A stretch of 64,000 nt of DNA from NCBI GenBank assembly GCA_028279865.1, contig JANQMV010000010.1, positions 3,630-67,629 on the forward strand. The letters run 5' to 3'. The notes beneath the pieces were generated by a model. The model did no database searches and was not told where the DNA came from. It saw only the letters and a list, made by a program, of their open reading frames with translations. This document shows, in pieces, positions 1-64,000 of the stretch (position 1 is its first letter; the number at the start of each line of letters is the position of its first letter). The position numbers were made by a program, and so were the translations under genes. The DNA is from Candidatus Altimarinota bacterium. GTDB taxonomy: Bacteria > Patescibacteriota > Gracilibacteria > JANQMV01.

Positions 1-942
1 AATATTAGCCAGGGTGATGGACAGACATCTACCGCAGGAGTTACAATTTCCTGCCATAACACAGCAAATGGGGGAACTTCCGGAAACGGAGGCTCTACAG
101 CTGGTACATATCAAGGTGGTGCAGGTTGAGGGCTAACAGGAAATGGTGCGAATGGAGGTTCGCATTGTGCTTTTGCTTATGGTGGTCAAAGTTTTTTGAA
201 TGGATGAGTCGGAGGGACGGGGAATTCTTGTTATACTTCTGAAAACTATGGTGGTTTCGGAGGAGGAGGAGGAGGTCAACTAGGGGGACCTGGAGCAGGT
301 GGAGGATATTCCGGATGAGGCAGTACAGGTAATTGGGCTAGCTATTCTACTTATGGTGGTGGTGGTGGATCCTATAACTCAGGGACAAATCAGTCTAACT
401 CTGCGGGTGTTAATAACGGACACGGTTATGTGAGCATCACATTACAATGAAATCCCGCATCTATAGCTTATGCTACTGCCAATCTTAATGGAAACAAGCA
501 AATTGTCTTCCTAGAGCTGCCTGCAGGGACTTCCATAACTTCAAATACGGAATACAAGGCATTTTGTGAAGCTCAAGGTTTTGCGCAAAATCAAAACTCA
601 AGCAGCAACAGTAATTACTTAAATGCTTGAATGCATAGCTCTTCAGAATATTATTGTTCAGATCATTGTTGTTATTTGGGCACAGGTAATAGTAAAGCTA
701 ATTCCTTAACTGCCTTCCAAAACCATGGCTTACCTATAAACACTAAATTTAGGGTGCGAGATCGTGGTTGTGGAAATTATGGTGGCAGTTTTAACCTTTG
801 AGAAAATACGACAGATTCCTTAGAAATAAACAGTTCGGGAGGTTTTTTTTATACACCTAACTATTATGGCTCATCTGATTTAGGCTCCTCAAGTCCTGAA
901 AGTTTTGCTTGAGACGGTCTTATTGTTTGCCAAAGTCAATAA
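1..942 (+). CDS. Glycine-rich exported protein, C-terminal part (5' end upstream of window). Needs table 25.
   Basis: Frame 1 is open from base 1 to TAA 940-942 only if TGA at 127, 205, 316, 448, 628, 799 and 910 are sense. The product has GGAG-TGA-G, NG-TGA-VGG, GAGGGYSG-TGA-GS and GGGGGSYNSG runs like the ALK/LTK-type glycine-rich domain, then a Cys-rich tail. Absent from the standard-code ORF track. Confidence 0.7.
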
Positions 943-973
943 TGAATCCTTTAAAAGCGTGGGAAACTAGTCT

Positions 974-1696
974 TTAGTGTTCCTCAATCCTATGTACCAC
1001 TTTTTCAATCAAATTTTGCAAAATGAAAAGATCCTCTTTTTCAATTTTGATTTTCAGAACTTGCTCAAGATTTGCCTTTTGTATGAAATTAATCGTTTTA
1101 ATTAAAGGAAAAGAGATTGCTTGAACGACAGCAATTTTAGATAAACAGCTTTGGCAGACAACTCCTAAATTACTAATATCAAAATAATTTTTTGATTCGG
1201 TTATTTTTTTTCTACATTTTAAACAGTGGTCGAAGCTTGGTAGGTAACCCAGAATCGTAAAAAATTTTACTTTGAAAGAAAGTAAAATCAATTCGCTATT
1301 TTGCTCTTCATTCAGAAGTCCGAAGCTAAATTTGCTAAGTTTGAGAATCTTTGGCAAGGGATATTTTTCTTCTGTGAATTTATTTAATAATTTGATGATT
1401 TCGTATCCGATTTCCATCAACTTCAAGTTTTGTATAATTTTTTTGTTCAACATGACACACTCTGCCCCATTTATTCTATAGAGATCATTTGTGCTACTTT
1501 TATAAAAATCAAAATTAATTTCATTAAAAAATTCTAAATGACCGCCTAGTTTACTTTTGATCTTACGAACTCCTTTGGCAATTGCGCTGATTTTGCCAAA
1601 TTCTTTTGTCAAGATTACAAAAATACGGTCTGCTTCAGAATAATCAGTCTTTCGGAGAATAATTCCGCTGGTTTTAAGGTTACGCTGTTGAGGCAT
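974..1696 (-). CDS. recO: DNA repair protein RecO
   Basis: 240-aa ORF. N-terminal OB-fold signature SGIILRKTDYSEADRIFVILTKEFGKISAIAKGVRK and C-terminal Cys pairs (HCLKC...CQSC). TAA stop. Confidence 0.85.
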   Translation of the reverse strand: MPQQRNLKTSGIILRKTDYSEADRIFVILTKEFGKISAIAKGVRKIKSKLGGHLEFFNEINFDFYKSSTNDLYRINGAECVMLNKKIIQNLKLMEIGYEIIKLLNKFTEEKYPLPKILKLSKFSFGLLNEEQNSELILLSFKVKFFTILGYLPSFDHCLKCRKKITESKNYFDISNLGVVCQSCLSKIAVVQAISFPLIKTINFIQKANLEQVLKIKIEKEDLFILQNLIEKVVHRIEEH

Positions 1697-1697
1697 T

Positions 1698-3182
1698 TTA
1701 CTTTCTTTTTATACCTAATAATGCAAGAATTTCCCGATCGACCACTTTAGTAAAATAAAGCATTAATCCGTAAATAACTCCTCCTGCCGGAATGAGTAGC
1801 ATGAGATTTTTGATCCCCCACGCCGCTGTTTGAAGGTTTAAATAGTAAACACAAACTCCCATTACAATTCCTGCGAAGACAATTTTAACAGCCTTTTTTA
1901 AATTAAGATTAATTTTAAGGATTTTCTTCACAACATAAAATGTTGCGATCAGGATGAAAATTTCCGACAGAACAGAGGTAGAGGCGGCACCTCTAAAACC
2001 ATAAGAAGGAATGACAATGAGATTGGAAACAAGATTAAAAATAACACAAAAAAGATTAATCCACAGCAGCTTAATCTGTTTACCCATAGCCACTAAAGTA
2101 AAACCAAAAAGAGAGTTTATAAAAGAAAAAAGCAGTGCAAAAATTAAAATAACCAGAGCTATATCAGCACCATATTCAAAAAGATTTCCACTGACAAATT
2201 CCTCCGTAGAAACCAGCTGAACGATTTTTTTAGATAAAACAAAAACACCTGCCACAATAGGCACCCCCATTGCTAAAAGAAAATCAAAAGAGTACTGGAT
2301 CAATTTAGTAATTTTTTCACTTTTTTCCTCTAGATAACGTGTCATTACAGGCAAAACAGAATTCATAAAATAAACAGGAATAATCACCAAAACATCAAGC
2401 ATCCGCATTGCAACACCATACATTCCCACCTCATCCAAATCCTTCATGAGGGAAAGCAGAATCGTATCCATACGAAAATACAAGGTACTTAAAACAAGCG
2501 CGATTCCATATGGCAGAGCTTTGACCGTGATTTTTTTCCAATAACTGAAGTCAAACCGATGGCGGATTTCTGTAAACCTTTTGGTGAATAACCACGTCAA
2601 AGCAACCAAGAGCAGATTGCCGCAAACTCCAGCTACAAGTAACTGAAAGAAGCCGGAAGCGGAGTAGTCTTTGTAAAAATAAAAAACAACCATCAGCATA
2701 TAACCTGTACTCACTAACTTGCTTATTACCAGCGCAATGACGGAATATTGCATCTTTAAATATACCTGTAAGACACTTGAAATAGTGCCGGAAAGTAGAG
2801 AGAAAAATGTCGAAACAGAAGCAATCGCTATTCCCATAGGAATAAGTGTGTCATCATACTTAGGAATCAAGAAAGAAATTCCCGCAGCAAGGGACATCAA
2901 AAAAAGAGCAAGCAGTGTCCTAATAGAAAGAACATTACCAATAATATGTGGTATTTTTGCCTTGTCTTTCGACATTTCACGAACCGCAATGGTATAAATT
3001 CCCAGATCAGCTGCAATGCCAAAAAACGCCAGAAATTCATAAATTGTCGTGTACTGTCCATAACCGGCGACTCCCAAATAATTTGTAATGATTTTTACAA
3101 TTAAAATTGAAAGTCCTGCTGTGATAACTTTTCCAATAATTTGAAAAAGTGTGTTACTGAGGATTTTACGTGCGATAGACAA
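1698..3182 (-). CDS. MOP-superfamily flippase (Wzx/MurJ-like polysaccharide or lipid-linked oligosaccharide exporter)
   Basis: 494-aa polytopic membrane ORF with a typical N-terminus (ILSNTLFQIIGKVITAGLSILIVKIITNYLG). Its TAA stop lies 1 nt from the recO start. Confidence 0.7.
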   Translation of the reverse strand: MSIARKILSNTLFQIIGKVITAGLSILIVKIITNYLGVAGYGQYTTIYEFLAFFGIAADLGIYTIAVREMSKDKAKIPHIIGNVLSIRTLLALFLMSLAAGISFLIPKYDDTLIPMGIAIASVSTFFSLLSGTISSVLQVYLKMQYSVIALVISKLVSTGYMLMVVFYFYKDYSASGFFQLLVAGVCGNLLLVALTWLFTKRFTEIRHRFDFSYWKKITVKALPYGIALVLSTLYFRMDTILLSLMKDLDEVGMYGVAMRMLDVLVIIPVYFMNSVLPVMTRYLEEKSEKITKLIQYSFDFLLAMGVPIVAGVFVLSKKIVQLVSTEEFVSGNLFEYGADIALVILIFALLFSFINSLFGFTLVAMGKQIKLLWINLFCVIFNLVSNLIVIPSYGFRGAASTSVLSEIFILIATFYVVKKILKINLNLKKAVKIVFAGIVMGVCVYYLNLQTAAWGIKNLMLLIPAGGVIYGLMLYFTKVVDREILALLGIKRK

Positions 3183-3357
3183 TTTTTTGGCTTGATTAAT
3201 GATAATTGTGTACTCAGGAAGAAGTTTAATCTAAAAAGTTTAAAGTAGAAAGTTTTTATCTTTTTTGAACTCAGTTGGCTAAAAGTCAATTCTGCTTGCG
3301 TTTTTTGACGGCTTCACTAGAATAGGCTCAGTTTTTATCTTTTTATTTGAAACAAAT

Positions 3358-3687
3358 ATGAAAAAATTAATCGTAATGTTTGGAATCACCGTATTACTTA
3401 CAGGATGTTCAGCAAATTCCAACATAAACACAAACCCTGACGAAGAAAATTTTGATGCAAATTACCAAGGTTCATCGGAACTTGACTTGGAAAATGCTGG
3501 CATGAATAAGGAAGGTAAAGACCCAGCGATGGGAGAAGAAGTCGATTCTGATGGTGAAATGACGGAAGCAACAGAAGCAGGTGTAGATGACATTGAAGAG
3601 GAATCTGAGATGCTTTCCGCTGAAGAGACGGAAAATACAGGCACAGGAGAAACTTCAATGGAGGTCGACTTAGAAGCTCAAAATTAA
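3358..3687 (+). CDS. Small acidic lipoprotein
   Basis: Signal peptide with lipobox LLTGC, followed by a D/E-rich sequence. TAA stop. Confidence 0.55.
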   Translation: MKKLIVMFGITVLLTGCSANSNINTNPDEENFDANYQGSSELDLENAGMNKEGKDPAMGEEVDSDGEMTEATEAGVDDIEEESEMLSAEETENTGTGETSMEVDLEAQN

Positions 3688-3716
3688 AGATAATTTATTA
3701 TTTATAACAAAAAAAC

Positions 3717-4451
3717 ATGAAAAAATTAATTCCACTAGCTGCTATCGTTTTTATTTTAGCCGGGTGTGATCTATCTAAAGAATCAGCAACAAATCTTAAC
3801 CTTGATAATGAGACAACCGGCACAAAGACCTCGGAAAATGTTCCGTTTGGAGAAAAAGATTCAATGGAACAGGTACAAATTGATCCCACAGAAGGAGCCT
3901 TAGAAAAAAATAATTCTTTAACTTCGGAAAAAACTATGACGATTAAACAAACAGATCTGCCACAGTCGGGAGAAAAAGTGGCAACCATGGAAACAACAAA
4001 AGGGACAATTAAGATTCGTCTTTTTGAGAAGCAAGTTCCAAAAACTGTTGAAAATTTTATCGGACTTGCTGAAAAGGGGTATTACGATGGTGTGATTTTT
4101 CACAGAGTAATTCCTGACTTTATGATTCAGGGCGGAGATCCTACAGGAAGCGGAATGGGGGGAGAAAGTCTTTGGGGAGGTAAATTTGAAGATGAATTTG
4201 TAGATGGATTAAAAAATATTTATGGTGCACTTTCGATGGCGAATGCAGGTCCCGGAACAAATGGGAGTCAGTTTTTCATTGTGCAAAATCAAGACGGAAC
4301 TCCTTGGTTAGATGGTGCTCACTCTGTATTTGGTCAAGTCTTTGAAGGAATGGATGTGGTGAATTCGATTGCAACTGTAGAGCGTGATCCGATGGATAAG
4401 CCGCTTGAAGAAATCTCCATTATTTCAATAAAAATTGAAACACAAGTATAA
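3717..4451 (+). CDS. Cyclophilin-type peptidyl-prolyl cis-trans isomerase, lipoprotein
   Basis: Lipobox ILAGC. Cyclophilin core [26 protein letters not shown]...NGSQFFI. Confidence 0.9.
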
Positions 4452-4479
4452 ATCTCAAAAATAAATTTAAACCAACTTC

Positions 4480-4509
4480 AAAAACTCCACTAATTTAAGT
4501 GGAGTTTTT
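4480..4509 (+). terminator. Rho-independent terminator after the PPIase gene
   Basis: Stem ACTCCACT / AGTGGAGT with a 6-nt loop, followed by a T run and preceded by an A run. Confidence 0.6.
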
Positions 4510-4584
4510 AAAATTCACTTTTGCATTCTCTTTCTTTTTTAATAACTTCATACTAAGATTAATTGTGCATTAATTTAGTTTATT

Positions 4585-5286
4585 ATGCAGACCAGAAACC
4601 AAGTATTACTCTTAGTTATCGGTGCCGCAGTTGGTTTACTTTTAATTAGCCAGTACCAAGCAAAACCGCTTACAATTACAACTGACAAATTTAGTGAGGC
4701 TCAGGATCAAAAAGAGATCCTTGAAATGCTAAACAAAGAACAAAATTTATTAAAAACTCAGATTTCAGGGCTACGTGAAAAATTAAACGAACTTCAATCT
4801 CAAGACATCAAAGAAGAAGACCAGGAAATTATCCAAAAACTCAAAGAGCGTATTGGACTTGTTACTGTTGCTGGTCCCGGAGTTCAAGTTATTCTAAATG
4901 ACAGTGCTGATGTAATTCGTGAAAATCTTGACGTAAATAATGATGCACTTGTGCATGCTGCTGACTTGCGAGATGTGATTAACCTACTACGTGTTTCTAA
5001 GGCGGAAGCGGTTTCCATCAATGGGCAAAGAATTCTAATTAATTCACCAATTTCTTGTGTCGGTAACTCTATTTTGGTAAATAACTCAAACTTGCTTCCA
5101 CCTTTTCAGATCGAAGCAGTAGGGGATGCCAGCGTATTGATGACTCAACTTGAAAACAATCTCTTAGGTATTCACAAAAGAACCATTGATAACAACCTTA
5201 TTTTTAAAGTTGAACGTAAAGAAGATCTCAGTATACCGATTTACAGTGGAGACTTAGGTTTTAATTTTGCGGAGGTTGTAGAATAA
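4585..5286 (+). CDS. DUF881-family membrane-anchored protein
   Basis: N-terminal TM segment, coiled coil, then GPGVQVILNDS...ALVHAADLRDVINLL, typical of DUF881. Confidence 0.7.
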   Translation: MQTRNQVLLLVIGAAVGLLLISQYQAKPLTITTDKFSEAQDQKEILEMLNKEQNLLKTQISGLREKLNELQSQDIKEEDQEIIQKLKERIGLVTVAGPGVQVILNDSADVIRENLDVNNDALVHAADLRDVINLLRVSKAEAVSINGQRILINSPISCVGNSILVNNSNLLPPFQIEAVGDASVLMTQLENNLLGIHKRTIDNNLIFKVERKEDLSIPIYSGDLGFNFAEVVE

Positions 5287-5288
5287 AA

Positions 5289-5678
5289 TTAAAAATTTAG
5301 CCAAGTAATTCTCAGCTGTAAAACTGTCGCGAAAGCAACCCATATTAAATATGGAATGTTTGCATATACAACAAATTTTGCATACGGGTAAATTGCAAAC
5401 ATTAACCAGATAATTGTAATTAATACCAAAACTATATCTATTGCTGCCAAGACATTATTTTTCAAAGCAAATTGCAGGGGGGTAAAAGCAAAGTTAAAAA
5501 TAAGATTCAAAACGAATGGCAGAAGTACAATAAAAGGTATTTTTCCTTTTATAAAAAGCCAAGCAACATACCCAAAAGTCGTTGCAATTATTATATAAAG
5601 AATCGTCCATACCGGTCCAAAGATCCATGCTGGTGGTGACCATGTTGGTTTTATTAATTGCTGATACCAATTTTGCAT
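5289..5678 (-). CDS. tspO: TspO/MBR tryptophan-rich sensory protein (appears to lack TM1, see findings)
   Basis: From the internal Met: MQNWYQQLIKPTWSPPAWIFGPVWTILY, the canonical TspO motif. The track ORF extends to a GTG at 5741, but that extension has no family resemblance. Confidence 0.7.
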   Translation of the reverse strand: MQNWYQQLIKPTWSPPAWIFGPVWTILYIIIATTFGYVAWLFIKGKIPFIVLLPFVLNLIFNFAFTPLQFALKNNVLAAIDIVLVLITIIWLMFAIYPYAKFVVYANIPYLIWVAFATVLQLRITWLNF

Positions 5679-5682
5679 AATT

Positions 5683-5823
5683 TTAATTTTTTTCGGGGAT
5701 AAAATAGACAAACCACACAAACCAGACAAGTGAAATAGCACCTAACCAGTCTCCATCCAAGGCTGCTGGAATTCCTTGTATCCCAAGTAATCCTAAAAAT
5801 CCCAAGATCCAACGCTGTTTCAT
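5683..5823 (-). CDS. 46-aa hydrophobic ORF, possibly the displaced N-terminus of tspO
   Basis: ATG 5823-5821 to TAA 5685-5683: MKQRWILGFLGLLGIQGIPAALDGDWLGAISLVWFVWFVYFIPEKN. It ends inside an A7 run 5 nt before the tspO ATG, in a different frame. Confidence 0.3.
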   Translation of the reverse strand: MKQRWILGFLGLLGIQGIPAALDGDWLGAISLVWFVWFVYFIPEKN

Positions 5824-5911
5824 AATTCTTGAATTAAGGATAAAACTGTCTGGTATTTTCCTCTTTTTAACAATTTAATGCAAATTTTATTAGCTGGAAA
5901 TAAAATCAGCC

Positions 5912-6307
5912 TTAGTTTTCCAAATCAGCAAAAATTTCATGTATGTTTCCATCCGGGTCAGCGAAAAAACCAGCACGCTGTCCCCAAGGCATATCTGCCG
6001 GTTCTTTGATAGAAACTGCTCCTTTTTCGATAATTTCCGCAAAACTTTTATCAACTTCTGCAGAAGAATTTTCCCGGAAAGCCAGCTCGAGCGTTTGTCC
6101 TTTTTTCTTTTCTTTGTAAGTATGGTGATTAGTGACTTGGCTCATGATGCTATTTGTACTGATTGCAAATCTTGTGCCGGTATTTTCGAATTCAACATAT
6201 TCGTCCATTTGAAGAATGACTTTAAATCCCAGAGTATCTCGGTAAAAACCAAGCATTTCTTCAAAATTATTGGTAATGATTCCGATCATGTCAATTTTTG
6301 ATTGCAT
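5912..6307 (-). CDS. VOC/glyoxalase-family protein
   Basis: 131-aa ORF with the glyoxalase/bleomycin-resistance fold pattern (GFYRDTLGF...PWGQRAGFFADPDGNIHEI). Confidence 0.7.
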   Translation of the reverse strand: MQSKIDMIGIITNNFEEMLGFYRDTLGFKVILQMDEYVEFENTGTRFAISTNSIMSQVTNHHTYKEKKKGQTLELAFRENSSAEVDKSFAEIIEKGAVSIKEPADMPWGQRAGFFADPDGNIHEIFADLEN

Positions 6308-6317
6308 AGGGTTTGTC

Positions 6318-7283
6318 TTAATTTTTTAAAGCAATTTTTCTCCAACGTATTAATAGTATCAAAATAATAAGACCAGCGAAAACAATTCCGACAATACCAT
6401 TTGCAAATTCATTGACAGGAGAGAATGATATCCAGAAAAAGACTGAACCAAAAATTAGGTTAACAAGATGTCTTTTCGTGACTTTCTGGTTAAGGATCTG
6501 ATAGAAAACAAACCAGAGTACTGCAAGGATAAGTATAAATTGCCAGAAAATTGTGTTATTTCCCGGTACGTTAATTTCAGCTAAAATATAAGGCATGAGG
6601 ACATTTATTCCTTGGAAGAGGAATCCGGCGAGCCAAAAAATTTTAGTTGAGAAAAGTTTAAACTTCTTTGAAACTTTATTTTTTCTGAAGAAATAAGTAA
6701 GCCAAATAAGCAATAATACTATTACGATGCTTCCACCGATGAGATCATCATTTGGTGTATAGTCCTTGTACATGGGCTCAAGTTTATATTCTATCAAAAA
6801 AACCATCCAAAAAAGCACAACACTTACTAAGCCAAGGAAACTAAAAAATAATCCTGTTTTTTTGAGTAATGGTTTGTTTTTATATTTTGGCCAACCTAAA
6901 TCGGTAATATAAATAGGGATGAGCGTACTTATGGTCGCATGAAAAAGTATAAGCATTAAAGTCCACGGTCACTGAATCTCGTCATGTAGACCGTAGCCAG
7001 AAAGTTCTCCCAGATCTCCATGGTCTAGATTAAAGCAAGATTGAATCATCGTTCCTTCTTCTAGAATCCCGTACGCAGCCGCAATAAAAAGAATACTCCA
7101 CTGAACTCTCCAGCGAACTTTTATTTCCCTAATAAGCAATGTCCCGCAGCCGTAGAGTAGAACTAGTAAAAAAAATGTAGCAGGGTGAAGAAACTCTAAT
7201 GGAGGAGTAGATCCTGAGATGACCTCTCCCAAGATAGGGGGCACCAAAAGTAACAAACCAATGATTTTTGTTCGAGTCTTCAT
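6318..7283 (-). CDS. Polytopic membrane protein, one gene with an in-frame TGA (table 25)
   Basis: Track ORF 6969-7283 ends at TGA 6971-6969. Four codons later, in the same frame, comes the ATG of ORF 6318-6956. Both halves are hydrophobic TM bundles. Confidence 0.6.
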
Positions 7284-7502
7284 GGTTGTATATGTTTAAA
7301 TGTTTTTATCTAGATAGAATAAAATTTATTCACATACCTATAACTTGCAGGCAAGTCAGAAAAAACAGCAGTAATACTAAAAAAGTTAATAAAACAAAAT
7401 AAATTATAGCATAATTACACAGTTCGCATTCGAAAAATTGCTTTTCTTTCAAAATAAAATAGAATGTACAAGGTGCTAATTACAATCTAAATTATATAAA
7501 AT

Positions 7503-7976
7503 ATGGGAAGATTTGAGTTTATCGTTCATTCAAAGTTTGCAACAGCGATTGCCTTACTTTTGATTTGGATTTTTGTGGGAACAGTGACTTTTCACTTTTT
7601 TGAAGATTGGACTTGGATAGAATCTTTTTATTTTTCAGTAGTTACATTAACAACGATTGGTTTTGGAGATCTGGTACCTACCTCAGATTTTACCAGATTT
7701 TTAGCCTCAATTTATATTTTGGCAGGTGTCTCTGCCGTGCTTGCTTCTCTCACTATAATCGGCAATACGGTGATTAAACAGTATCAAGATCGTTTGCTTA
7801 GAGAAAACCAAAAGTTGAAAAAAAAGGTTGAAGTTCTAACGATTATCGATGATGTTCCGGAAAAATATCATAAAGAAAGATTGGAGCGAGAAAATCGACA
7901 TTTAAGAAATATTATCAAATCAATTAAAACTGCGATCGAACCTAAAAAGTCTTCAAAAACTCCGGAAAAAAGTTAG
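7503..7976 (+). CDS. Two-TM potassium channel
   Basis: Selectivity filter TLTTIGFGD between two TM helices, with a charged C-terminal tail. Confidence 0.8.
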   Translation: MGRFEFIVHSKFATAIALLLIWIFVGTVTFHFFEDWTWIESFYFSVVTLTTIGFGDLVPTSDFTRFLASIYILAGVSAVLASLTIIGNTVIKQYQDRLLRENQKLKKKVEVLTIIDDVPEKYHKERLERENRHLRNIIKSIKTAIEPKKSSKTPEKS

Positions 7977-8031
7977 ATAAAGAGACTCTTTTCGACTATA
8001 ATCAAGAGGCAGTTTAACCAGAAAAAACAAA

Positions 8032-9672
8032 ATGAATATTGTTGAAATCAGAAAAAAAGTCGACCAAATTGATGCTCAAATTGTGGAGTTAATCAAGCAA
8101 CGCTTAGAGCTTCTGCCAGAAGTCGTCGCCTACAAAAAAAAACATAATCTAGCTGTTTATCAAGAAAAACGTGAAAAAGTCATTTTCTCAAATTTAAACA
8201 AAATTTCACAGAAATTAGGTGTAAATTATGATTTAGTAAAAAATGTTTGGAAACTTTTAATTGAAGAGGCACATCAAATTGAACATGCGTTGTTGGAAAC
8301 TGAAAAATCAAAAAAAGTTGAACTTAAAGTTGATTTTCAAAAACTTAAGATTCAAAGAAAAAAGTTAGACTTAAAAATCCCTTTGTTTGATATTTTTCAG
8401 TCAATTTATGCTAATTATGATCATTTTTATTTTTTAGACTCTTTGGAAGAGGACTCTGAGTTATCACGTAAATCATATGTGGGCTTTGATCCTACTCATG
8501 TCTTTAAAGCAAAAAACCATGATTTTTTCATTGATGATCAAAAAGTGGAATGTGAAAACCCTCTGGAAAAATTAAAAGAAATTTTCCCTACGGATTTATT
8601 TAAAGATTCGGGCAGCTTTGTCGGCGGATTAGTAGGATACTTGGGGTATGAAGCCTTAAGATACAAAGAAGATCTACCTTATTTTAAAGATAATGTTGAA
8701 TGGAATGATTTTGAATTCGGGCTTTACTTGGATGGATTGGTCTTTGACCATGAGACAGGGGAGCTTGATTATTTTTATCTGAATGAAGATCGCAGCGAAT
8801 TAATTCAAGAGGTATTGAAAAATACTTTTGATCTTATGCCTCTTACCGTCAGTAGGGAAGATCACACTCCTTCCGATTCGGAATTTAAAGATGGTGTTAT
8901 AAAAGTTAAAAAACACATAGGACAAGGTGACATTTTTCAAGGAGTTTTGAGTCAAAGATTCAATTATCGAATTGAAGGATCTACTCTTTCTTTTTACAAA
9001 AAACTAAGGGAAATTAATCCTTCGCCTCATATGTTTTTTGTGAAATTTGGACAAAGAGAATTAATCGGTTCTTCTCCTGAGTTAATCGCGCGTGTTGAAA
9101 AAGGGGTGATCGAAACTTTCCCGATTGCAGGAACACGCAGTCGAGGAAAAAATAAAACTGAAGATCAAAAAATAGAAAAAGACCTCCTGAAAAATTCTAA
9201 AGAAAGGGCGGAACATATGATGCTCGTCGATATGGCTAGAAACGATCTGGGCAGGATTTGCGACTACGGCAGTATAGAAGTAAAAAAATTAATGTATACA
9301 AAAAAATATTCGCATGTCCAGCACATTGTCAGTAATGTACAAGGACGTTTGAGTGATGATGTGAATATCATTGATGCCGTACTGACACAAATGCCGATGG
9401 GGACAGTTTCGGGCTCACCCCGTTTGGAAGCGGTGAAAATTTTAAATGACCTAGAGCCAACAGTACGCGGTCCCTACGGAGGGGGAGTTGGTTTTTTATC
9501 TTTTTCTAGAGAATGTGTTTTTGCACTCATGATCCGTTCTCTTTTTTTAAATGGAAAAAAGGCTTACACTCAGGCAGGTGCTGGAATTGTTGACGAATCT
9601 GTAGCTGAACATGAATTAAAAGAAGTTCATAAAAAATCTCGCGTAGTCAAAAAAGCCTTGCATTCAGATTAA
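8032..9672 (+). CDS. Fusion of an AroQ-type chorismate mutase-like domain with a chorismate-utilising enzyme (TrpE/PabB-like component I)
   Basis: The N-terminal 90 aa match the CM_2 pattern (IRKKVDQIDAQIVELIKQRLEL...EKREKVI). The C-terminus has GDIFQGVLSQRF, SPELIARV, PIAGTRSRG, AEHMMLVDMARNDLGRI and RGPYGGGVGF. Confidence 0.8.
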   Translation: MNIVEIRKKVDQIDAQIVELIKQRLELLPEVVAYKKKHNLAVYQEKREKVIFSNLNKISQKLGVNYDLVKNVWKLLIEEAHQIEHALLETEKSKKVELKVDFQKLKIQRKKLDLKIPLFDIFQSIYANYDHFYFLDSLEEDSELSRKSYVGFDPTHVFKAKNHDFFIDDQKVECENPLEKLKEIFPTDLFKDSGSFVGGLVGYLGYEALRYKEDLPYFKDNVEWNDFEFGLYLDGLVFDHETGELDYFYLNEDRSELIQEVLKNTFDLMPLTVSREDHTPSDSEFKDGVIKVKKHIGQGDIFQGVLSQRFNYRIEGSTLSFYKKLREINPSPHMFFVKFGQRELIGSSPELIARVEKGVIETFPIAGTRSRGKNKTEDQKIEKDLLKNSKERAEHMMLVDMARNDLGRICDYGSIEVKKLMYTKKYSHVQHIVSNVQGRLSDDVNIIDAVLTQMPMGTVSGSPRLEAVKILNDLEPTVRGPYGGGVGFLSFSRECVFALMIRSLFLNGKKAYTQAGAGIVDESVAEHELKEVHKKSRVVKKALHSD

Positions 9673-9802
9673 TCCCATTTTTAATTGAGCTGAGATTAGT
9701 TAAAAAAAACGTAGTAAAAAAGCATAAATAAAAATTGACCTTTGATATTTCGTTTTAGTAGAATGAAGAAAATAATACTTTTATATTTTTCATTTAAAAA
9801 CT

Positions 9803-11257
9803 TTGCTTTCATCAATTTTTAAACTAAAAAATCTACTTTATATTTTTCAACAAGAAGAGTATGAAATTAGTTTTTTTTTACAGTGGGTTAGACAAAATAA
9901 AAATTGGCATGATTTAGAAAAAAAGAAAAAGCTTAGATGGACGCTAAAAGCATATTTAATTTTCACTTTAGCTCTCTTGCTCTTTATCATTCCTTTGATT
10001 ATCTGTTTTGTGTACTTGATTTCCAGTCCAAACCTTTGGATCAGAGCTTTAGGAATTGTTGATGCGTTTTTGCTGTTTATTTTATTTTGGCTTAAGCCTT
10101 ACTACTATCTTGTTGCTGCCGCACTTCTAATCAAACCAATTGATATTTTGACAAAAGAATTTCTGATTTTACGAGCAAAGCAAAAACTAAAAAAACATCC
10201 TGAACTAAAAATTATTGGAATTACGGGTAGTTACGGAAAAACATCCGTAAAGGAGTTTTTGAATACAATTTTGGGGACAAAATATCGGGTTTTGAAAACT
10301 CCTGATAATATTAACACACCATTGGGAGTTTCTGCTTTGATCCAAAGGAGGGATCTCTCACAGTATGATGTTTTTATTGTAGAAATGGGGGCTTATCAAA
10401 AAGGCGATATTAAAAAAGTTTGTGATTTGGTTGGTCCTGAATATGGTATTTTAACCGGAATTAATGAATCTCATTTAGAAAGATTCGGTAGTGTCGCAAC
10501 AACAATTAAGACAAAATTTGAATTAATCGAGAGTTTACCTCCGTCAGGTAAAGCCTTCGTCAATGGAGATGATTTTAACGTTAAAGAAAACTATCTTAAA
10601 TTCGGCAAAGCAAAAAAAGAGCTATATTCTAAGAAATTAGCGAATAATATTCAAGGCGGAGCAAACGGAATGGAATTTGAAATGATTTTGCAGAAAGAAA
10701 AATTAAGCTTAACGACAAAGGCCCTTGGTGAGCATAATATTACCAATATCATTGCGGGTATTTTGACAGCAGAAGAACTCGGTTTGAATCTTGCTGAAAT
10801 CAAAAAAGGCGTTAGGAAAATCCAAGCTGTTAAACATCGACTTGAGCCAATTTTTAATCCAAATGGTGTGATTATCATTGACGATAGCTACAATGGAAAT
10901 CCTGCAGGTGTAAAAGCGGCTCTTGAAGTACTTAAGCTTTTCAAGGAACATCGTAAAATTTTTATTACTCCGGGTTTAGTGGAAATGGGTGGCGCCAAAA
11001 AACAAGTTCATATTACAATTGGTGAGCAATTGGCAAAAGTTTGTGATTTGGTTATTTTAATTAAAAACAGTAATTTTGATTATTTTATTGAAGGTCTCAG
11101 CAGGGGGGGATGGAATGTTGACTTAAAAAACTATCAAGAAGAAGAGAAATTAAGAGTTTTTGAAGATTCGGAAAGTGCGCATAAAGCTTTGAATAGCCTT
11201 CTAAAGAAAGGCGATGTTGTACTTTTTCAGAACGATTGGACGGACAATTATTCTTAA
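9803..11257 (+). CDS. murF: Mur ligase, MurF-like, with an N-terminal membrane extension
   Basis: TTG start. About 115 aa with TM segments, then ITGSYGKTSVKEFL (P-loop), MGAYQKGDI and DDSYNGNP Mur-ligase motifs. Confidence 0.7.
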   Translation: MLSSIFKLKNLLYIFQQEEYEISFFLQWVRQNKNWHDLEKKKKLRWTLKAYLIFTLALLLFIIPLIICFVYLISSPNLWIRALGIVDAFLLFILFWLKPYYYLVAAALLIKPIDILTKEFLILRAKQKLKKHPELKIIGITGSYGKTSVKEFLNTILGTKYRVLKTPDNINTPLGVSALIQRRDLSQYDVFIVEMGAYQKGDIKKVCDLVGPEYGILTGINESHLERFGSVATTIKTKFELIESLPPSGKAFVNGDDFNVKENYLKFGKAKKELYSKKLANNIQGGANGMEFEMILQKEKLSLTTKALGEHNITNIIAGILTAEELGLNLAEIKKGVRKIQAVKHRLEPIFNPNGVIIIDDSYNGNPAGVKAALEVLKLFKEHRKIFITPGLVEMGGAKKQVHITIGEQLAKVCDLVILIKNSNFDYFIEGLSRGGWNVDLKNYQEEEKLRVFEDSESAHKALNSLLKKGDVVLFQNDWTDNYS

Positions 11258-11671
11258 AAAGCGCTAAATTATTCCCAATTTTTTCATCTGCCTTTTTGAG
11301 AAGAGAGAAGTTTGTTTGATTTTTTGTCTGCAAGTTCAAGTTCTCAAAGATTTTCTGATGAACGAAACGAAAGAATCAGAGTTTAAAGTGAGTGGTTTTT
11401 GTTTTAAAAATTTTTTGTAAGAGATTAGTCCTCCGGTAATGAACGAGTTTCTTGATTACTATATTTTATTGAATGTAAGTATAGCCACAATTACTAAGGA
11501 TTGAATCAGGGATACTGAATTTAAGAATCTTTGATATTTGAAAACTTGAATTTTTTCCAAATTCTAAAAAGACTGCTGCGTCATTTTTATTAACCTCTTT
11601 ATATTTCTAAGAAAAACCATTGTTAACTAAATTGTTTTGCAAAATTGGGGATAATCTAGCAAAAAGCACAC

Positions 11672-11700
11672 TTGTCTTTTTGGATTTATTGTGTTATAAT
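11672..11700 (+). promoter_or_regulatory. Sigma70-like promoter for the 11738 surface-protein gene
   Basis: TTGTCT, 17-nt spacer, TATAAT, with an extended -10 TGT. It lies 38 nt upstream of the ATG. Confidence 0.5.
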
Positions 11701-11737
11701 AAGATTCGCAAATGTAATAATTGCTAATAAACAAGCC

Positions 11738-14700
11738 ATGTTAAAAACAAAAAAACAAATTAGTAAGATTGCAACTTGAGCAATTCTACTACAGTTGATT
11801 TTTACTTGATTACAGACTACTCCTACAGTAAAAGCGGAAACAGTGATTAAAACGATTGATTTCACAATTGAAGCAAATTATAAGCAAGAAAATGCTGTTA
11901 ATGGAACTGATTACAGTTGAGGAAAAGTCACTTTGCATACAGATACTGATTCTTCACAGGCACCTGGAGATCAAATCAATATTGTTGACTCAGCAGCAAG
12001 TATTAACTTAGCATCATGAATTAAGTATTCTGATGTTTTGCCTTTTGACCCAGGTTCATGTTCTCCGCAAATTTTTGTAGATGAAAATTACGTTTGGGCA
12101 GCGGGAGCTTATGCAACCTGAGGAAAAATTTTTCGGGCACCTGTTAGCGATCCCATTCATTGATGGTCACACGTTGCCACGCTACCAGCACCTATCATTT
12201 GGAGCCAGTATGCTGTTTTTGACTGATATATGTATTTCTTCGGCGCACAGCACCATTCAGATATATTAAGAACACCGACTAGTGACCTTACAAATTGGTC
12301 AAAGATTGGAAACATGCCTGCTAACATTGGAGCAGGTTACACAATTGTAACCGATAATTACATTTATGTTTCTGATGGTTTTTCCGGTAGTTCAATTTAT
12401 CGAGCATCTAGAAGCGATCCGACAAACTTCTCTTATTATACAAGTGATCCTATAGCTAGCTCTACCTTAAAAGCTTTTAAATATGGATCAGATAAATACT
12501 ATCTCGTTTCAGGTGCAAAAACTTGGGAAATACCTATGGTTAATGGTGAACCAAATTTTGCTAGCACGATTACGCATAATAATAATGTAACTCTGGAAGT
12601 AACAAATCAGGCACTTATTATTATTGGTGATACAATTTATGCTTTTGGTTCCAATATTTATTCAACTACAATTGGGAGCTGGGGAAGTTGGTCTCAATTA
12701 GGCTCATATCCTAATGGTGATACCTTTGGCTATGCTAATCTTTTCACAGTAGGCAATAAATTATATGGTCTTGGTGACTACTGGAATAGAAACACAAATT
12801 ATAACGATATTTACAGTTGGGACTTAATTAATAATATGTTAAAAACACCAAATGTCAATGGGAGTGTTTTTCCTACAGATTATCCAACTGATAAGCCTTA
12901 CTATATTACGACAACTGATAGCTCAAACATTGATTTACCAGAAGGGGTGAGTCAAATTAATTCTCTAACAGTGACTTACTCTGAACCTACAAACACTTCA
13001 ATCAAGGGATTAGCTTCTTTTGATGGTCGCAATACCTGGGAAAAATGGAATGGAAGTGAATGGTGAGATGTTGGTGTTCCACTAGCTTATACGGATAATT
13101 TAGCCCAAGGGTGAGTTGCAAGCGCAAGTTCAATTTATAGTAGTTCTCACTTAGCATGAAACGCTTTTGATAATTTGGATGGGAATATGTGGAACTCCGC
13201 TAGCTCTGATCCACCAGGTTGGCTTAAGTATGATTTTGGCTCTGGGAATGAAAAAACAATCCAGCGAATTCGCATCCAGGCAGCAATAGCAGGTAATGCT
13301 GCTTATGCTCCTAAAACATTTACAATTCAAGCCTCAAATGATGATACAAACTGGGACATACTAGAGTCTTATACATCTATAGATAATTGGTCGAGCCTTG
13401 AGTGGCGGGATTTTGATTTCGCAAACTCGACAGCTTACAGATATTACAAAATAGATGTAACAGAATGTGAGTCAAATGCTTATATTGGTTGGACAAGTAC
13501 AGAAATGATGGAGATTGCACCAGATTATACCTCAGATTTAGCTACAAACCCTAGCAACGCAATTGATAATGGACATTTCTCAAACAGAACTGCTGCTGGT
13601 GCTTTTGATAATATTCATGGAGAGTGGAATCCGAACTCATGGGACGCCCCAAGAGATGGTTCAGATCGATGGGTAGGCTATGATTTTGGAGAAAATAAAA
13701 TAATTAATAAAATTAGAATTCGAAATGGTAATGGAGGTTTGCCTCATTATTCGATTAAAGACTTTCATATTGATGGCTGGAACGGAAGTAGTTGGGAGTT
13801 GATTCAGGCTGAAACAAGCTTGCCTCCATGGTCAAATGATGAATGGAGAGAGTTTATAATTGAAGCACCGCAGAGTTTCTCTAAATACAGGGTATTTATC
13901 GACGATACACATCACTCTGCATCTGCGAAAGACTCATGTATTTCAGAAATAGAGATGATGGGGGTAATCTCTACTGATCCTCTTGATAATCTCCAAAACG
14001 GTAACACTGTCTCAGAGATTGAAGCAGGTTTGACTAATCTAACCATCACAGACGAAGCTTCAGTGGACTTTGCTTTTGATTTAGCGACCACAGATTCTTC
14101 AGTCACTCCGAGTATTGATCAAATTAGCGTTTCTTATGAAGGTATTTTCAACTATGCTCCTCTTGATCCTGTTTTAAATAATCTCAATGACGGTGGCTTT
14201 CTGGCTGACACAACACCTACCTTCAGCTTTAACTTAGTCGATACAGATCTCGGAGCAAGTGTGCGCTATCAAATCCAAGTTGATAATAATGCAGATTTTA
14301 GTTCTCCCGAAATTGATTTTACAGAATTAACTCTCGTCGCAACTCCACGCCTAGGAGCAACCTACACACCAACCACAGGTTTACCTAATGATACCTTTTA
14401 CTGGAGGGTGAAAGCGATCGATAATGAAGGATTGGAAAGTAATTGGACGGAAGCAACACTTGGTTTCAGTCTTGATACCAATCTGCCTGTTTCTTCTATT
14501 CTGTACCCTCAAGACTGAGCTGATTTAAAGAAAGTTGAAAGCATTATCGGTAAATCTACCGACACAGGCGGAGTTGATTTTACGCGGATCAGTATTCTGG
14601 ATACCCTTTCTTATAAGTATTATAACGGTACAAGTTTTAGTGAAGATATTGAAACATGGATTCAGACTAATTCTGCAGGAGCAGGTAGTAGCAAGACAAG

Positions 14701-52755: not shown

Positions 52756-52761
52756 ATGATT

Positions 52762-56348: not shown

Positions 56349-56358
56349 ACTTTAAATG

Positions 56359-60052: not shown

Positions 60053-60081
60053 TTGACACTGGGATTGTTATGTGTTAAAAT
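60053..60081 (+). promoter_or_regulatory. Sigma70-like promoter for the TPR lipoprotein gene
   Basis: TTGACA, 17-nt spacer, TAAAAT, with an extended -10 TGT. It lies 53 nt upstream of ATG 60134. Confidence 0.5.
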
Positions 60082-60133
60082 TAAGCAATAGAATTAGAAA
60101 AATTTATCTTATCCTTTTTCATTTTATATTGTT

Positions 60134-61618
60134 ATGAAAAACAAAAAACATTTTATTTTTGTGATGCTTTTAAGTTTTAGCTTGTCTTGATGCTTCTTTC
60201 AACCAGAGTCAACACAAAAATTACCTTCTGGTACAGAGGAAGATCTTGTCACGCTTGAGAATGAAAAGATTTGAGACAAAACACAAGTTTGAATGTCTGG
60301 TTCGCACCTTCTTGAGGATGATCAAAGTGAAGTTGAGCAAACAGATTTAACAAAATTGGATTGACTGATTGACTCCAGAAACCTAGAAGGGTGTGCAGAG
60401 TTAACAGAAGAGTGATTGCAAGAATTTTGTCTTGAAAATATAAAAAACCTGATTGCTTTTGATGAGGTTAAATGCAATGAAATAGAAGAAGATATAGATT
60501 TAAAAAAAGATTGCTTAAAATATAAAGAAGAAATAACAGCCTATGAAAAAGAGTTAGCAGAGTATGAGAAACAAAGCAAAGGGATAACTAAGGCTGAAAT
60601 AAATTGTCAAGATGAGGAAAAAACACCTTTTACTGCAGCTTTTTGTGAAGCAGATAGCACCGAAAAACAAAATATTTTATACGATTTTAACCAGTTTGAT
60701 GATCTTCTTGCGTATTATGAAGATTTGTACGAAGGGAAAAAACAAGATGTGCAATTTTTGAATTCCTATGCTTTGACTTTGGTTCAAAAAGGTAGCCTTG
60801 AAATGCAAGAAAAAGTTTATGGACAAAAAGCCTTGGCTTTGGCGGATGAAGTACTTGCAATGGAATCAAAAAATGCAGAAGCTCTCTATATAAGAGGGTA
60901 TGCAAATGAGATTCAGGAAAATTATGCAGAAGCTTTAAGTGCCTATGATCAGGCTCTTGAAATTAATTCTGAAAATGCTTTGGTAATTAGCCAAAAAGGA
61001 CACGCGTATCGTCTCATGGGAGAATACGAAAAGGCAAAAGAATATTTCCAACAAGCTTTAGCGATAGATCCTGATTTACCCCATGCTCTTCTCAATTTAG
61101 GCAATGTTTTCTTGAGCGAATGAGACAAGGACAAAGCGATTGAGCTTTATGAAAAAACCTTGAATTTAACCAGTAATATACGTTTTCAGGCAGAGGCGAG
61201 CTATGCTCTTGGCTCGATTTATACTTTTGAAGAGGATTACTTAAAGTCAAAAAATTACTTCCAACAAACCATTAGTGTCGACCCCAAATTTGAAGCGGGT
61301 TATATCGGCTTAGCTAGAGTGCAGTTCTTAATGGCGTTTGATGAAGAGAAGACTGTCGATGAATCAACTAATTTAATTGCTGATTCATTTAACAATTTGA
61401 TTTATGCCATTGATTTGAATCCAGAGAAAACGCTGGTTTATTATCAACTGGGTACACAATATAAAATTATGGAGATTGAAGGGAATGCCGAAAAGGCAAA
61501 ATTGATGTTTGAAAAAGCTCTGGAAGTTGTGAAGAATGACATAACTTTATCTGTTCACGAAAAAGACGAAATGCGTGAAATGATCAACCTGGAAATGGCT
61601 GAGCTTATTTCTAATTAA
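60134..61618 (+). CDS. TPR-repeat lipoprotein. Needs table 25.
   Basis: One frame is open from ATG 60134 to TAA, with 6 in-frame TGA (60188, 60272, 60290, 60362, 60413, 61121). It joins track ORFs 60416-61123 and 61160-61618. The signal peptide ends LSFSLS-TGA-C. Multiple TPR units follow. Confidence 0.75.
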
Positions 61619-61648
61619 ATTAATAAAATTATTTTTAAATTTCACACC

Positions 61649-63715
61649 ATGCAAAATATAAAAAGAACAACCCTTACTTGTGCTTTATTAATAAGTTTAT
61701 TTGGTTTTTGAGAAATTGTCTATGGATTTTCACAGGTTATTACTGTCGGAGGAGAGCAAGTTAGGGTAACAGGAGCAAGTCAGCAACAGTTAAATGATTG
61801 GGTCAACCACGCTAGATCTACATGAAGCTTCTCGCAAGCGCGAAGTGATTTGCTAAGATGAGCAGATCATGCTGGAGGAGGGGTCGCGTATAATTCAGCA
61901 ACAAGAGTTACTTGTGTGAATTGAGCCGGTTTAGAGTTAATACCCTCACAACCGCCACCACCACCAACTAGATATACGCATTATACGACATGATCATGGT
62001 GAAGTTGTTCCGGTTCTTGGTCGAGTTGGAGAATTAGTGGCAGTCAGAAATGTCGTACACTTTCGGGTACACAAAGTCGCTCGGTAACTTCTTATACCAG
62101 TTATAATGGACCGAATCAAAGTCGACCTTCTAGCTCGAGACCTTGTAATGATTCTCAATGTGTTTCAGTTCCAACTTATACACGTTATTCTACATGACCA
62201 TGGTGAAGTTGTTCCGGTTCTTGGTCGAGTTGGAGAATTAACGGCAGTCAGAAATGTCGCACACTTTCTGGTACGCAAAGCCGTTTGGTAAGTTCTTATT
62301 CAAGCTATAGCGGACCAAGCCAAAGTCGACCTTCTAGCTCAAGATCTTGTAGTGATTCTCAATGTGTCCCACGTCCGAGGTATACGCATTATACGACATG
62401 ATCATGGTGAAGCTGTTCCGGTTCTTGGTCGAGTTGGAACTCAAGCAATCATTGTAGAACTTATTCAGGTACTCGCAGTCGTTCGGTGACTTCTTACACA
62501 AACTACACCCCTCCGAATGAAAGCCGACCTTCTAGCTCGACATCTTGCACTCGTTTGGAATGCGATAATACCTCTCCAACCTGTCAAATTGCCTTAAGCA
62601 CAACTCAATGGTCTAATTCCAACATTACCGCGACTGCGAGTTGTCATGAAACAGGTTCTCCTGTGTCAGGTTGTACGCAATCAACTCAAAATCAAACACT
62701 GACATCCAATGGTCAAGTTGCGAATTTTACAGTTTCAGATAAGGCAGGTAATCAAGTTAGCTGCCAAAGTAATGCGGCAAAAATTGACAAACTCGCGCCA
62801 AGCTGTGCCGTTGCCTTAGAACCAAGTGGTTGGGTGGACGAGAGTGAAGAGGCTAAAGTGGTTGCGACATGTACTGATCAGAATGCATCCAGTTCTTCAG
62901 GTAATTCAGGTTGTCTACAAAACACCAAAACAGAAGAGATAGCAGAAGCGAGAGAAGTTACCTTGACTGTCGCAGACCAGGCTGGAAATACCACAACTTG
63001 CGAATCTGTTTATCCAAAGATTCATTATGTTGAAATCCGAGGTTTACAAAATACAGAACCTAGTCCTGCTCTTAAGCAAGAATTAACGAATATAATTCGA
63101 CAAAATGTTGCAGATTTAACTCGAAACCAATTTCCAAATCCGAATAACAATATTTTAAATTATAATCTGAATAATAGTAGTATTGCTTATTATGAAGGAG
63201 ACGTCAGTTTGGATGCTTTTACCGTTTCCGGCAAAAAGACAATAATTGTTAAGGGCGGTAATTTATACTTAAAATGAAATGTAACTTATACCGATGCTAG
63301 TAGCATTTTAGGAATTATAATTTTACAAGATACTGATGGAAATGAAGGTGATGTTTACATAGACAATCAAGCGACAGATGTTCATGCAATTTTATTTTCC
63401 GAAGGTACAATGTTTAGTGTGAGTGGTAACACGAATACGATTATTGCAGATCGAGACAATACACTGATTAATCAGCTTTATTGGAAAGGCAGTGTGATTA
63501 CAAGTAATACGATTTGAGGTTTTAAAGACGGCACGGGCACACGAGAAAATGATTTGAAATATTTCAGGAGCTATCATCCGACGACAGGCGGACAAAAGTC
63601 TGGTGATCCTCAAGGTAGTGAAGCACCGATGATTATAGAGTATGATTCTGGTCTTCAAGGAAATGTTCCATATGGATTTGAACAACCTTCAGGATTTAGC
63701 TTTCAAGGAATTTAA
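61649..63715 (+). CDS. Secreted Cys/Trp/Ser-rich repeat protein. Needs table 25.
   Basis: One frame is open from ATG 61649 to TAA 63713-63715, with 12 in-frame TGA. It contains track ORF 62486-63277. Signal/TM segment TLTCALLISLFGF. Three 68-aa repeats, each with a GSWSSW...C...R.R motif. Confidence 0.7.
61973..62570 (+). repeat. Three tandem 204-nt coding repeats
   Basis: Units start at 61973, 62177 and 62381, each with TATAC(G/A)C(A/G)TTAT.C.ACATGA.CATGGTGAAG.TGTTCCGGTTCTTGGTCGAGTTGGA. The third unit diverges in its second half. Confidence 0.85.
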
Positions 63716-63879
63716 GATTTTTATCAACATCCATTAAAGTCAATGCCATGTTTTATCAAACAAGAAATACAAAACAAACTAAGTCTCCCTTCAAGGGGTG
63801 AAATGGTGCTTTTCTCAACTTGAGGAGTTTTACTCTACTACGTCTTTTTTCGTGATCACTACAAAAGACTTCACTAGAA

Positions 63880-64000
63880 ATGATGCGATTTGTCAAGGGG
63901 GGGCTAAGAGGGGCGTTCTGTCGCTGTTTAGCAACAATTCTTCTCTTTCAACTTATTCTTCCTGCAAACTTTATTTCTCAAGCCCAAGCCCTCACGACTA
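63880..64000 (+). CDS. N-terminus of a secreted protein (continues beyond the window)
   Basis: MMRFVKGGLRGAFCRCLATILLFQLILPANFISQAQA-LTT is a classical signal peptide with an AQA cleavage site. Confidence 0.4.
   Translation, partial: MMRFVKGGLRGAFCRCLATILLFQLILPANFISQAQALTT

Follow-up and report, generated by a model that had tools for sequence, protein, structure and literature searches.

A stretch of 64,000 nt from contig JANQMV010000010.1 (GCA_028279865.1), hereafter the window, was analysed for the meaning of the codon TGA; all coordinates are positions in the window, and the data comprise the window itself and a 3 kb extension at its left edge provided by the Logan contig L171. The window is part of the cellular chromosome of a Patescibacteria (candidate phyla radiation) bacterium. 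No gene in it ends in TGA and, judged from the sequence, TGA is a sense codon that stands mostly or entirely for glycine, as in NCBI translation table 25. Its use is confined to five genes, in which it clusters toward the 5′ end. The best explanation, to which we assign a probability of roughly 0.78, is a table 25-type reassignment by which TGA passed from stop to glycine, combined with rare and probably costly use of the codon. The code itself is already known; what varies here is the pattern of codon usage and, probably, the position of the lineage.

TGA does not terminate genes in the window

The stop codons of the 52 credible genes are TAA (37) and TAG (15), with no case of TGA. At the TGA rate of 24% pooled from relatives that use this stop, the probability of finding none among 52 genes is 6e-7. 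When TAA and TAG are the only stops counted, five long open frames emerge: 1-942 (forward strand, seven TGA), 6318-7295 (reverse strand, one TGA), 11660-15733 (forward strand, start at 11738, 11 TGA), 60098-61618 (forward strand, start at 60134, six TGA) and 61619-63715 (forward strand, start at 61649, 12 TGA). They contain 37 in-frame TGA codons over about 9.5 kb. The chance that frames of 313-1331 codons would be free of TAA and TAG at the base composition of the window ranges from 6e-8 to 3e-31. The open reading frames that end in TGA under table 11, at 6969, 13066, 14518, 61123 and 63277, continue in the same frame for 145-888 further codons before a TAA or TAG is reached. The original prediction, which had held that TGA is not a stop here, that these five open reading frames read on, and that 37 in-frame TGA codons are spread over five genes, is thus reproduced exactly in its counts, and its estimate of about 9 kb of coding sequence broken or lost under the standard code is close to the 9.5 kb found. 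The trinucleotide TGA itself is not avoided, since the two out-of-frame readings of the TGA-free genes contain 317 and 793 copies of it.

Independent Logan assemblies of three runs reproduce the window sequence without a difference, and an assembly artefact is thereby ruled out. RecO, DnaE and the 62486-63274 fragment led to nothing but short contigs, all of them identical to the window, whereas the N-terminal fragment of gene 2 led to L171 and its 3 kb past the left edge. Frameshifting and assembly error were both rejected as causes of the interrupted frames; the independent assemblies carry the same TGA-bearing sequence. A possible sixth TGA-bearing gene at 63748-64000 was also rejected, because its two in-frame TGA codons precede the likely start at 63880.

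The five TGA-bearing genes

Gene 1 (1-942, forward strand) is the 3′ part, 313 codons long and closed by TAA, of a gene for a secreted protein with an ALK/LTK-like glycine-rich domain. Its TGA codons within the window have their first bases at 127, 205, 316, 448, 628, 799 and 910. The gene runs off the left edge, and its complete version is found in L171, which matches the window at 100% over 1-11293 and reaches 3 kb beyond that edge. There it encodes 625 amino acids with 15 TGA codons, two of them within the N-terminal signal peptide. Gene 2 (6318-7283, reverse strand, TAA stop) encodes a multi-pass membrane protein of 321 amino acids with a weak AF_0692-like match. Its sole in-frame TGA, at 6969-6971, is codon 105, and homologues align over residues 1-319, across the TGA (E = 7e-80).

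Gene 3 (11738-15733, forward strand) encodes a secreted protein of 1331 amino acids with Kelch-like repeats, two F5/8 type C domains and an Ig-like region. It holds 11 TGA codons (11777, 11807, 11918, 12017, 12119, 12161, 12224, 13064, 13112, 13157 and 14516), ten of them within the first 474 codons and two in the signal peptide; the F5_F8_type_C match at residues 461-581 (E = 1.6e-16) spans the TGA at residue 474, and F5/8 type C sequence is located downstream of ten TGA codons. Gene 4 (60134-61618, forward strand) encodes a TPR lipoprotein of 494 amino acids with six TGA codons (60188, 60272, 60290, 60362, 60413 and 61121), and its TPR repeats lie downstream of five of them. Gene 5 (61649-63715, forward strand) encodes a secreted protein of 688 amino acids with 12 TGA codons (61709, 61823, 61859, 61922, 61991, 62000, 62195, 62204, 62399, 62408, 63275 and 63515). 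It includes a tandem array at 61973-62438, made of 2.3 copies of a 204-bp unit with 85% matches, in which the motif TT[TGA]SW[TGA]SCS, in its general form YT(T/S)-TGA-(S/P)W-TGA-SCSGSWSSW, occurs three times when the partial copy is counted. A Pfam search of these repeats, in glycine and tryptophan versions, gave no match, and homologue searches with genes 3 and 5 returned almost nothing besides generic domains. The independent assemblies are interrupted at position 62002, in the opening part of this array.

A homologue of gene 5 with 45% identity, P0001, is encoded at 3717-5915 of contig L086 (Logan SRR20820732_21371) from the same samples and has no TGA. The contig is 10.4 kb long and carries eight genes, with neither TGA stops nor in-frame TGA, and its codon usage is the same as that of the window (distance 0.38). 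P0001 may be a TGA-free paralogue of gene 5 in the same genome. A more distant homologue, P0002, belongs to contig L090 (10001-12778; JGI 3300025130). Its source genome clearly uses TGA in the manner of table 25, and the public protein is a table-4 translation, with tryptophan at each TGA, of a gene with 21 TGA codons; the stored protein is abnormally rich in tryptophan and does not match the translation of the locus.

TGA falls mostly on glycine positions

The residue that TGA encodes was examined in alignments in which every TGA was masked as X, so that each codon could be compared with the homologue column at that position. In gene 1, three TGA codons occupy near-invariant glycine columns (residue 182, glycine in 77 of 78 sequences; residue 418, 113 of 118; residue 579, 5 of 5), and glycine is the majority residue at a fourth (residue 355, 84 of 117). 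Two columns are mixed, with 37 glycines and 26 serines at residue 179 and 50 glycines and 40 leucines at residue 381. Tryptophan appears only once among about 470 homologue residues aligned with the TGA positions of this gene. Two TGA codons in the conserved C-terminal domain of gene 5 are aligned with glycine and glycine in P0001, and with serine and glycine in P0002, and the TGA at residue 459 of gene 3 corresponds to a glycine in the homologue P0005. The first TGA of gene 4 is the -1 residue of the lipobox, LSLS[TGA]C, a position occupied by glycine or alanine in other lipoproteins of the window (LLTGC, ILAGC, FLSAC).

Profile scores point the same way. The TPR repeat of gene 4 that contains the TGA at 61121 scores 29.8 bits against TPR_1 when the codon is translated as glycine and 19.5 bits when translated as tryptophan, a gain of 10.3 bits; the TPR_7 profile gives 30 against 22 bits, and the F5_F8_type_C profile of gene 3 gives 60.9 against 57.0 bits (+3.9). 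The homologue columns, the lipobox of gene 4 and these scores are the grounds on which TGA is read as glycine. A sense reading had been proposed originally, with the choice between tables 4 and 25 left open. Pfam domains across and downstream of TGA codons, homology over the full length and the placement of TGA on conserved residues bear out the first part, and a comparison of hidden Markov model scores, together with the columns, points, for the second, to a table 25-like glycine, with one tryptophan-aligned exception in gene 2 that is weighed below. What goes beyond that proposal is the absence of TGA from 47 genes, its clustering at 5′ ends and signal peptides, and the existence of relatives that stop at TGA. 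Selenocysteine was rejected: there are up to 15 TGA codons per gene, they lie at glycine columns and in signal peptides, and the MsrA/B gene has none.

TGA usage is patchy and biased toward the 5′ end

In the five genes, TGA and GGN codons number 37 and 250, so that TGA makes up 13% of the glycine codons; the counts in the other 47 genes are 0 and 887 (Fisher p = 3.6e-24). The TGA-free set includes all housekeeping genes of the window, among them dnaE (1168 amino acids) and gyrA (889 amino acids), and also a 28%-GC gene for an Avs4-like defence protein (1418 amino acids), five genes for secreted proteins or lipoproteins and five orphans without a Pfam match. Since genes of all these kinds lack TGA, neither expression nor secretion nor weak constraint predicts by itself where the codon occurs. 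No motif was found in the sequence context of the 37 TGA codons.

Within the genes that do use it, TGA lies early. For the four complete secreted genes, with gene 1 taken in its full-length L171 form, the ratio of TGA to GGN is 16 to 26 in the first 100 codons (38% TGA) and 28 to 246 thereafter (10%; p = 1.8e-5), and TGA codons have a median relative position of 0.19, GGN codons one of 0.56 (Mann-Whitney p = 5e-7). In each of the four, at least one TGA falls among the first 40 codons, within the signal peptide or adjacent to it (chance 0.037). The control was L090, a contig with typical table-25 usage that was reached through the distant homologue of gene 5. There, 18 of 20 genes contain TGA, including hisS, gatA, grpE and rsmB, and TGA amounts to 23% of the glycine codons without positional bias. 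No second control of this type was present among loci L091-L170.

The TGA-bearing genes do not look foreign, because their synonymous codon usage outside glycine matches that of the rest of the window: TGA-bearing and TGA-free genes lie 0.40 apart, where the null gives 0.37 +/- 0.07 (p = 0.31), and L090 is much more distant from either set (0.75).

Relatives of the genome include TGA-stop users

The best GyrA relatives of the window, at 63-70% identity, are Patescibacteria metagenome-assembled genomes (MAGs) labelled Peregrinibacteria, Peribacteria, Altimarinota or Gracilibacteria. In a bootstrapped neighbour-joining tree of this protein, the window forms one clade with L001-L010 and L024 (100% bootstrap), in the company of MAGs labelled Peregrinibacteria or Peribacteria. 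The placement of gyrA that had been called for originally has thus been made, and it groups the window with Peribacteria-like genomes that include TGA-stop users. Within the clade, two subclades are separated, each with 87% support. The window belongs to subclade A together with L001, L005 and L024; in these last three, proteins have their natural end at a TGA with several more stops behind it, and L001, the closest sampled relative, is one of these TGA-stop users. In subclade B, L006 and L008 have orthologous genes that end at the same TGA, and L004 has one TGA in a CtpB-like protease, at the invariant glycine of SSFEGIGA (B. subtilis CtpB). The window and L004 are therefore found in different subclades, and on this single-gene evidence TGA would have changed its status at least twice within the clade. 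As the GyrA relatives include several clear TGA-stop users, the recoding may be recent here. A metagenome scan with DnaE found no close relative, the best match having 52% identity.

Four loci, L002, L009, L010 and L028 (the last being CP174359.1, the complete 721 kb genome of Patescibacteria bacterium UBA2163), show no TGA-terminated gene and no convincing sense TGA among 4 to 23 long open reading frames. TGA may be without an assignment, or very scarce, in their genomes too.

According to published work, UGA-as-glycine is confined to the GTDB class JAEDAM01, and the class Gracilibacteria (Peribacterales and allies) uses table 11 (preprint 10.64898/2026.05.24.727570; PMC13092985). Table 25-like genomes outside JAEDAM01 have been flagged by gTranslate, namely five GlobDB genomes of order GCA-2401425 and GCA_034717395.1 of order JAYELJ01; the authors of the preprint ascribe these cases to taxonomic misplacement and give no description of codon distribution (10.64898/2026.05.24.727570).

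A rare and probably costly glycine codon

By analogy with established table-25 organisms, decoding would be carried out by a tRNA-Gly with anticodon UCA, and release factor 2 would have been lost. The only tRNA of the window, identified by ARAGORN and Rfam, is a tRNA-Gly(GCC) at 25109-25183 (forward strand). No tRNA-UCA was detected in the window (ARAGORN and Rfam), in the 3 kb extension of L171 or in 16 loci (ARAGORN), and prfB is absent from the 64 kb window and the extension, a result that is uninformative for the genome as a whole. A small open reading frame of the GIY-YIG nuclease family (24861-25118, forward strand) overlaps the 5′ end of the tRNA-Gly(GCC) by about 10 bases.

The pattern of usage suggests that this lineage either acquired the new meaning of TGA recently or decodes it inefficiently. 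Any TGA would then carry a risk of stalling or abortive translation, and selection would purge the codon from most genes in proportion to the cost of the aborted product. TGA would be best tolerated near the 5′ end, where that product costs least; an argument from the cost of nonsense errors predicts such a gradient.

Several observations weigh against this explanation. Its costly-codon part does not readily account for the five secreted or lipoprotein genes and the five orphans that are free of TGA, or for the presence of TGA at highly conserved glycine sites. The contrast with ordinary table-25 usage relies on one control contig, L090, and the GyrA tree is a neighbour-joining tree of a single protein that includes no labelled JAEDAM01 sequence. 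The glycine reading itself meets two positions aligned with tryptophan. Codon 105 of gene 2 corresponds to tryptophan in 122 of 144 representative homologues (GVQWPWT) and to glycine in none, and its TGA is present in two independent assemblies (L171 and L172). Residue 474 of gene 3, also a TGA, is tryptophan in P0005, the sole informative homologue. Every other informative TGA position sits on a glycine or a variable column. The simplest reading of codon 105 is a missense change from TGG to TGA, tryptophan to glycine, at a site that varies in 15% of the homologues.

A bolder extension of the favoured explanation would see in this genome an early, independent capture of UGA by glycine outside the canonical table-25 class, with a codon that is costly or used as a gate, a core genome free of TGA, and TGA placed in the 5′ ends and signal peptides of a few surface-protein genes whose expression would depend on the UGA-reading tRNA; L004 would then be a second such event. 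We consider this extension tentative and less likely than not.

Alternative explanations

Some alternatives concern the meaning of the codon. If the standard code were in force, the lack of TGA stops would be a matter of chance avoidance and the five genes would be dead, for example as recent imports from a table-25 organism truncated at their first TGA. It is true that 47 of the 52 genes have no in-frame TGA, as in a standard-code genome, that the closest sampled relative stops at TGA, and that a table-25 organism with a distant homologue of gene 5 exists in L090. The idea is nevertheless scarcely credible given the probability of 6e-7 for 52 genes without a TGA stop, five frames of up to 1331 codons with no TAA, TAG or frameshift (6e-8 to 3e-31), the native codon usage of the five genes, the conservation of gene 2 over its full length past its TGA, and the location of TGA specifically on glycine columns instead of the mix expected of random nonsense mutations. 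Translation of TGA as tryptophan (table 4), as in Mycoplasmatales, insect endosymbionts and the Minisyncoccia family JAKLIH01, would fit codon 105 of gene 2 and residue 474 of gene 3; one transition, of a kind that an AT-rich genome favours, converts TGG to TGA, and recent reports describe this code in other Patescibacteriota (gTranslate preprint 10.64898/2026.05.24.727570; PMC13092985). We hold it to be highly improbable, as the TGA sites of gene 1 show one tryptophan in about 470 residues, with glycine near-invariant at residues 182, 418 and 579 and in the majority at 355, the -1 position of a lipobox does not accept tryptophan, and the tryptophan versions have the lower Pfam scores. Moreover, the 47 TGA-free genes contain 112 TGG and 0 TGA codons, which would be unexpected for synonyms at 36% GC. 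A compromise is ambiguous decoding, by which TGA would be read mostly as glycine through a tRNA(UCA) and in a useful fraction as tryptophan through the near-cognate tRNA-Trp(CCA), so that a TGG-to-TGA change at a conserved tryptophan could survive. Intact genes do hold glycine-aligned and tryptophan-aligned TGA codons alike, the TGA at the tryptophan site of gene 2 is fixed in two independent assemblies, and the proteome of a BD1-5 bacterium contains a few UGA-as-tryptophan peptides beside many UGA-as-glycine peptides (PMC4032931). With just one strong tryptophan-aligned site, which an ordinary tryptophan-to-glycine missense explains equally well where 15% of the homologues lack the tryptophan, we judge this very unlikely.

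Other alternatives accept glycine and differ over the patchiness. The TGA-rich genes might have been acquired horizontally from heavy users of TGA as glycine, in a host whose own TGA decoding is recent and whose core is TGA-free. Consistent with such a history, TGA accounts for 13% of glycine codons across the five genes and so comes near the 23% of L090, these genes encode accessory surface proteins for which close homologues are few or lacking, the same samples also contain the TGA-free homologue P0001 of gene 5, on a contig whose codon usage is that of the window, and a division of 0/887 against 37/287 is impossible under uniform neutral mutation. The non-glycine codon usage of these genes is, however, indistinguishable from that of the window (0.40 against a null of 0.37 +/- 0.07) and far from that of L090 (0.75), and no integrase, transposase or island boundary flanks them. 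Simple import also leaves the 5′ bias unexplained, because L090, a contig of the donor type, shows none; we therefore regard it as unlikely. TGA might instead be a regulatory rare codon, like TTA under bldA in Streptomyces, with the surface genes translated only when the TGA-reading tRNA is available. Its absence from housekeeping genes, the coherence of a set made of four secreted proteins or lipoproteins and one membrane protein, and its early clustering, with a TGA in the first 40 codons of all four complete secreted genes (chance 0.037), agree with regulation. Yet five other secreted or lipoprotein genes manage without TGA, and the nonsense-cost model yields the same 5′ bias with no regulation at all, so this proposal appears quite improbable. 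Reassignment to glycine with rare, probably costly use of the codon is thus the reading that we retain.

Other features of the window

Besides the five genes, the window contains recO, a polysaccharide flippase, a cyclophilin, a chorismate-binding enzyme, Mur ligases and an ADP-forming acetyl-CoA synthetase, as well as gyrA, guaB, murC, obg, msrAB, pth, rsmF, dnaB, dnaE, rplK and nusG. A TGA-free block at 21456-59865, in which all stops are TAA or TAG, comprises rplK, nusG, secE, the Avs4-like gene, msrAB, gyrA, guaB, murC, obg, pth, rsmF, dnaB, dnaE and several orphans. A phage origin of the window was rejected in view of its chromosomal genes (rplK, nusG, gyrA, dnaE, dnaB, murC and guaB) and the lack of phage genes.

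The Avs4-like gene (25460-29716, reverse strand) encodes 1418 amino acids, of which the first 227 or so match the N-terminal nuclease domain of Avs4 (NCBIfam 195.6 bits, PADLOC 176 bits); the remainder is unmatched, the scores are far below the full-length cut-off, and the GC content of 28% is the minimum of the window. The gene could represent a divergent member of the Avs/STAND defence type in a candidate-phyla-radiation genome. A 546-residue fusion at 8032-9672 (forward strand) combines a type II chorismate mutase with a chorismate-binding enzyme like anthranilate or isochorismate synthase, which is unexpected for a reduced genome. A candidate 6S RNA at 23461-23620 (reverse strand), located between secE and a gene for an M50 peptidase, matches the Rfam model over its full length but below threshold (36 bits, gathering cut-off 46.4; E = 0.001). 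No Shine-Dalgarno-like motif was seen in the 30 bases upstream of the 13 starts inspected, where the leaders are rich in A and T.

Significance and comparison with known systems

The choice of table has direct consequences for annotation: under table 11, about 9.5 kb of the 64 kb, which codes entirely for surface proteins, is fragmented or missed, and table 4 would place tryptophan at conserved glycine sites. Models of codon capture, of an unassigned codon and of an ambiguous intermediate all predict a stage at which the stop has vanished and the new sense codon is just appearing; to our knowledge, natural examples of such an intermediate stage of reassignment are scarce. Should the same pattern hold across the whole genome, the lineage would offer a direct way to test which genes are the first to accept a new codon, and for what reason.

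In table 25, UGA encodes glycine in Absconditabacteria (SR1) and Gracilibacteria (BD1-5), GTDB class JAEDAM01 (Campbell 2013; Rinke 2013; Hanke 2014, PMC4032931). The window resembles these organisms in that TGA is never a stop, that in-frame TGA falls on conserved glycines and that the genome is a low-GC (36%) member of the Patescibacteria. It differs in the spread of the codon, which in L090 is even over 18 of 20 genes, whereas in the window it occurs in 5 of 52, biased toward the 5′ end and outside housekeeping genes. GyrA, in addition, groups the window with Peribacteria-like TGA-stop genomes and not with a uniformly recoded clade. The genomes of GCA-2401425 and JAYELJ01 flagged by gTranslate are comparable as cases of evidence for UGA reassignment in lineages that taxonomy puts under table 11. 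With the users of table 4 (Mycoplasmatales, insect endosymbionts, genera of Eggerthellaceae and JAKLIH01), the window shares the passage of TGA from stop to sense in an AT-rich, reduced genome, and one of its TGA codons lies on a conserved tryptophan. Its informative TGA positions favour glycine, however, with the exception of gene 2 codon 105 and gene 3 residue 474, and TGG has not been replaced in the other 47 genes.

Stop-codon recoding confined to the late genes of some phages has reportedly been described, by Ivanova in 2014 and Borges in 2022. There too, in-frame recoded stops are found in a subset of genes while the remaining genes fit the standard code, but the window is a cellular chromosome without phage genes, and its TGA-bearing genes are scattered and do not form a late-gene module. 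In Streptomyces, the TTA codon read by the bldA tRNA is rare, lies outside essential genes in a small accessory set, often near the 5′ end, and depends on one dedicated tRNA. The likeness is one of pattern only, TGA being absent from the housekeeping genes of the window and early in a small set of genes. The origin of the rarity differs: in Streptomyces that of TTA follows from an extreme GC bias, whereas the mutational bias of the window should favour TGA.

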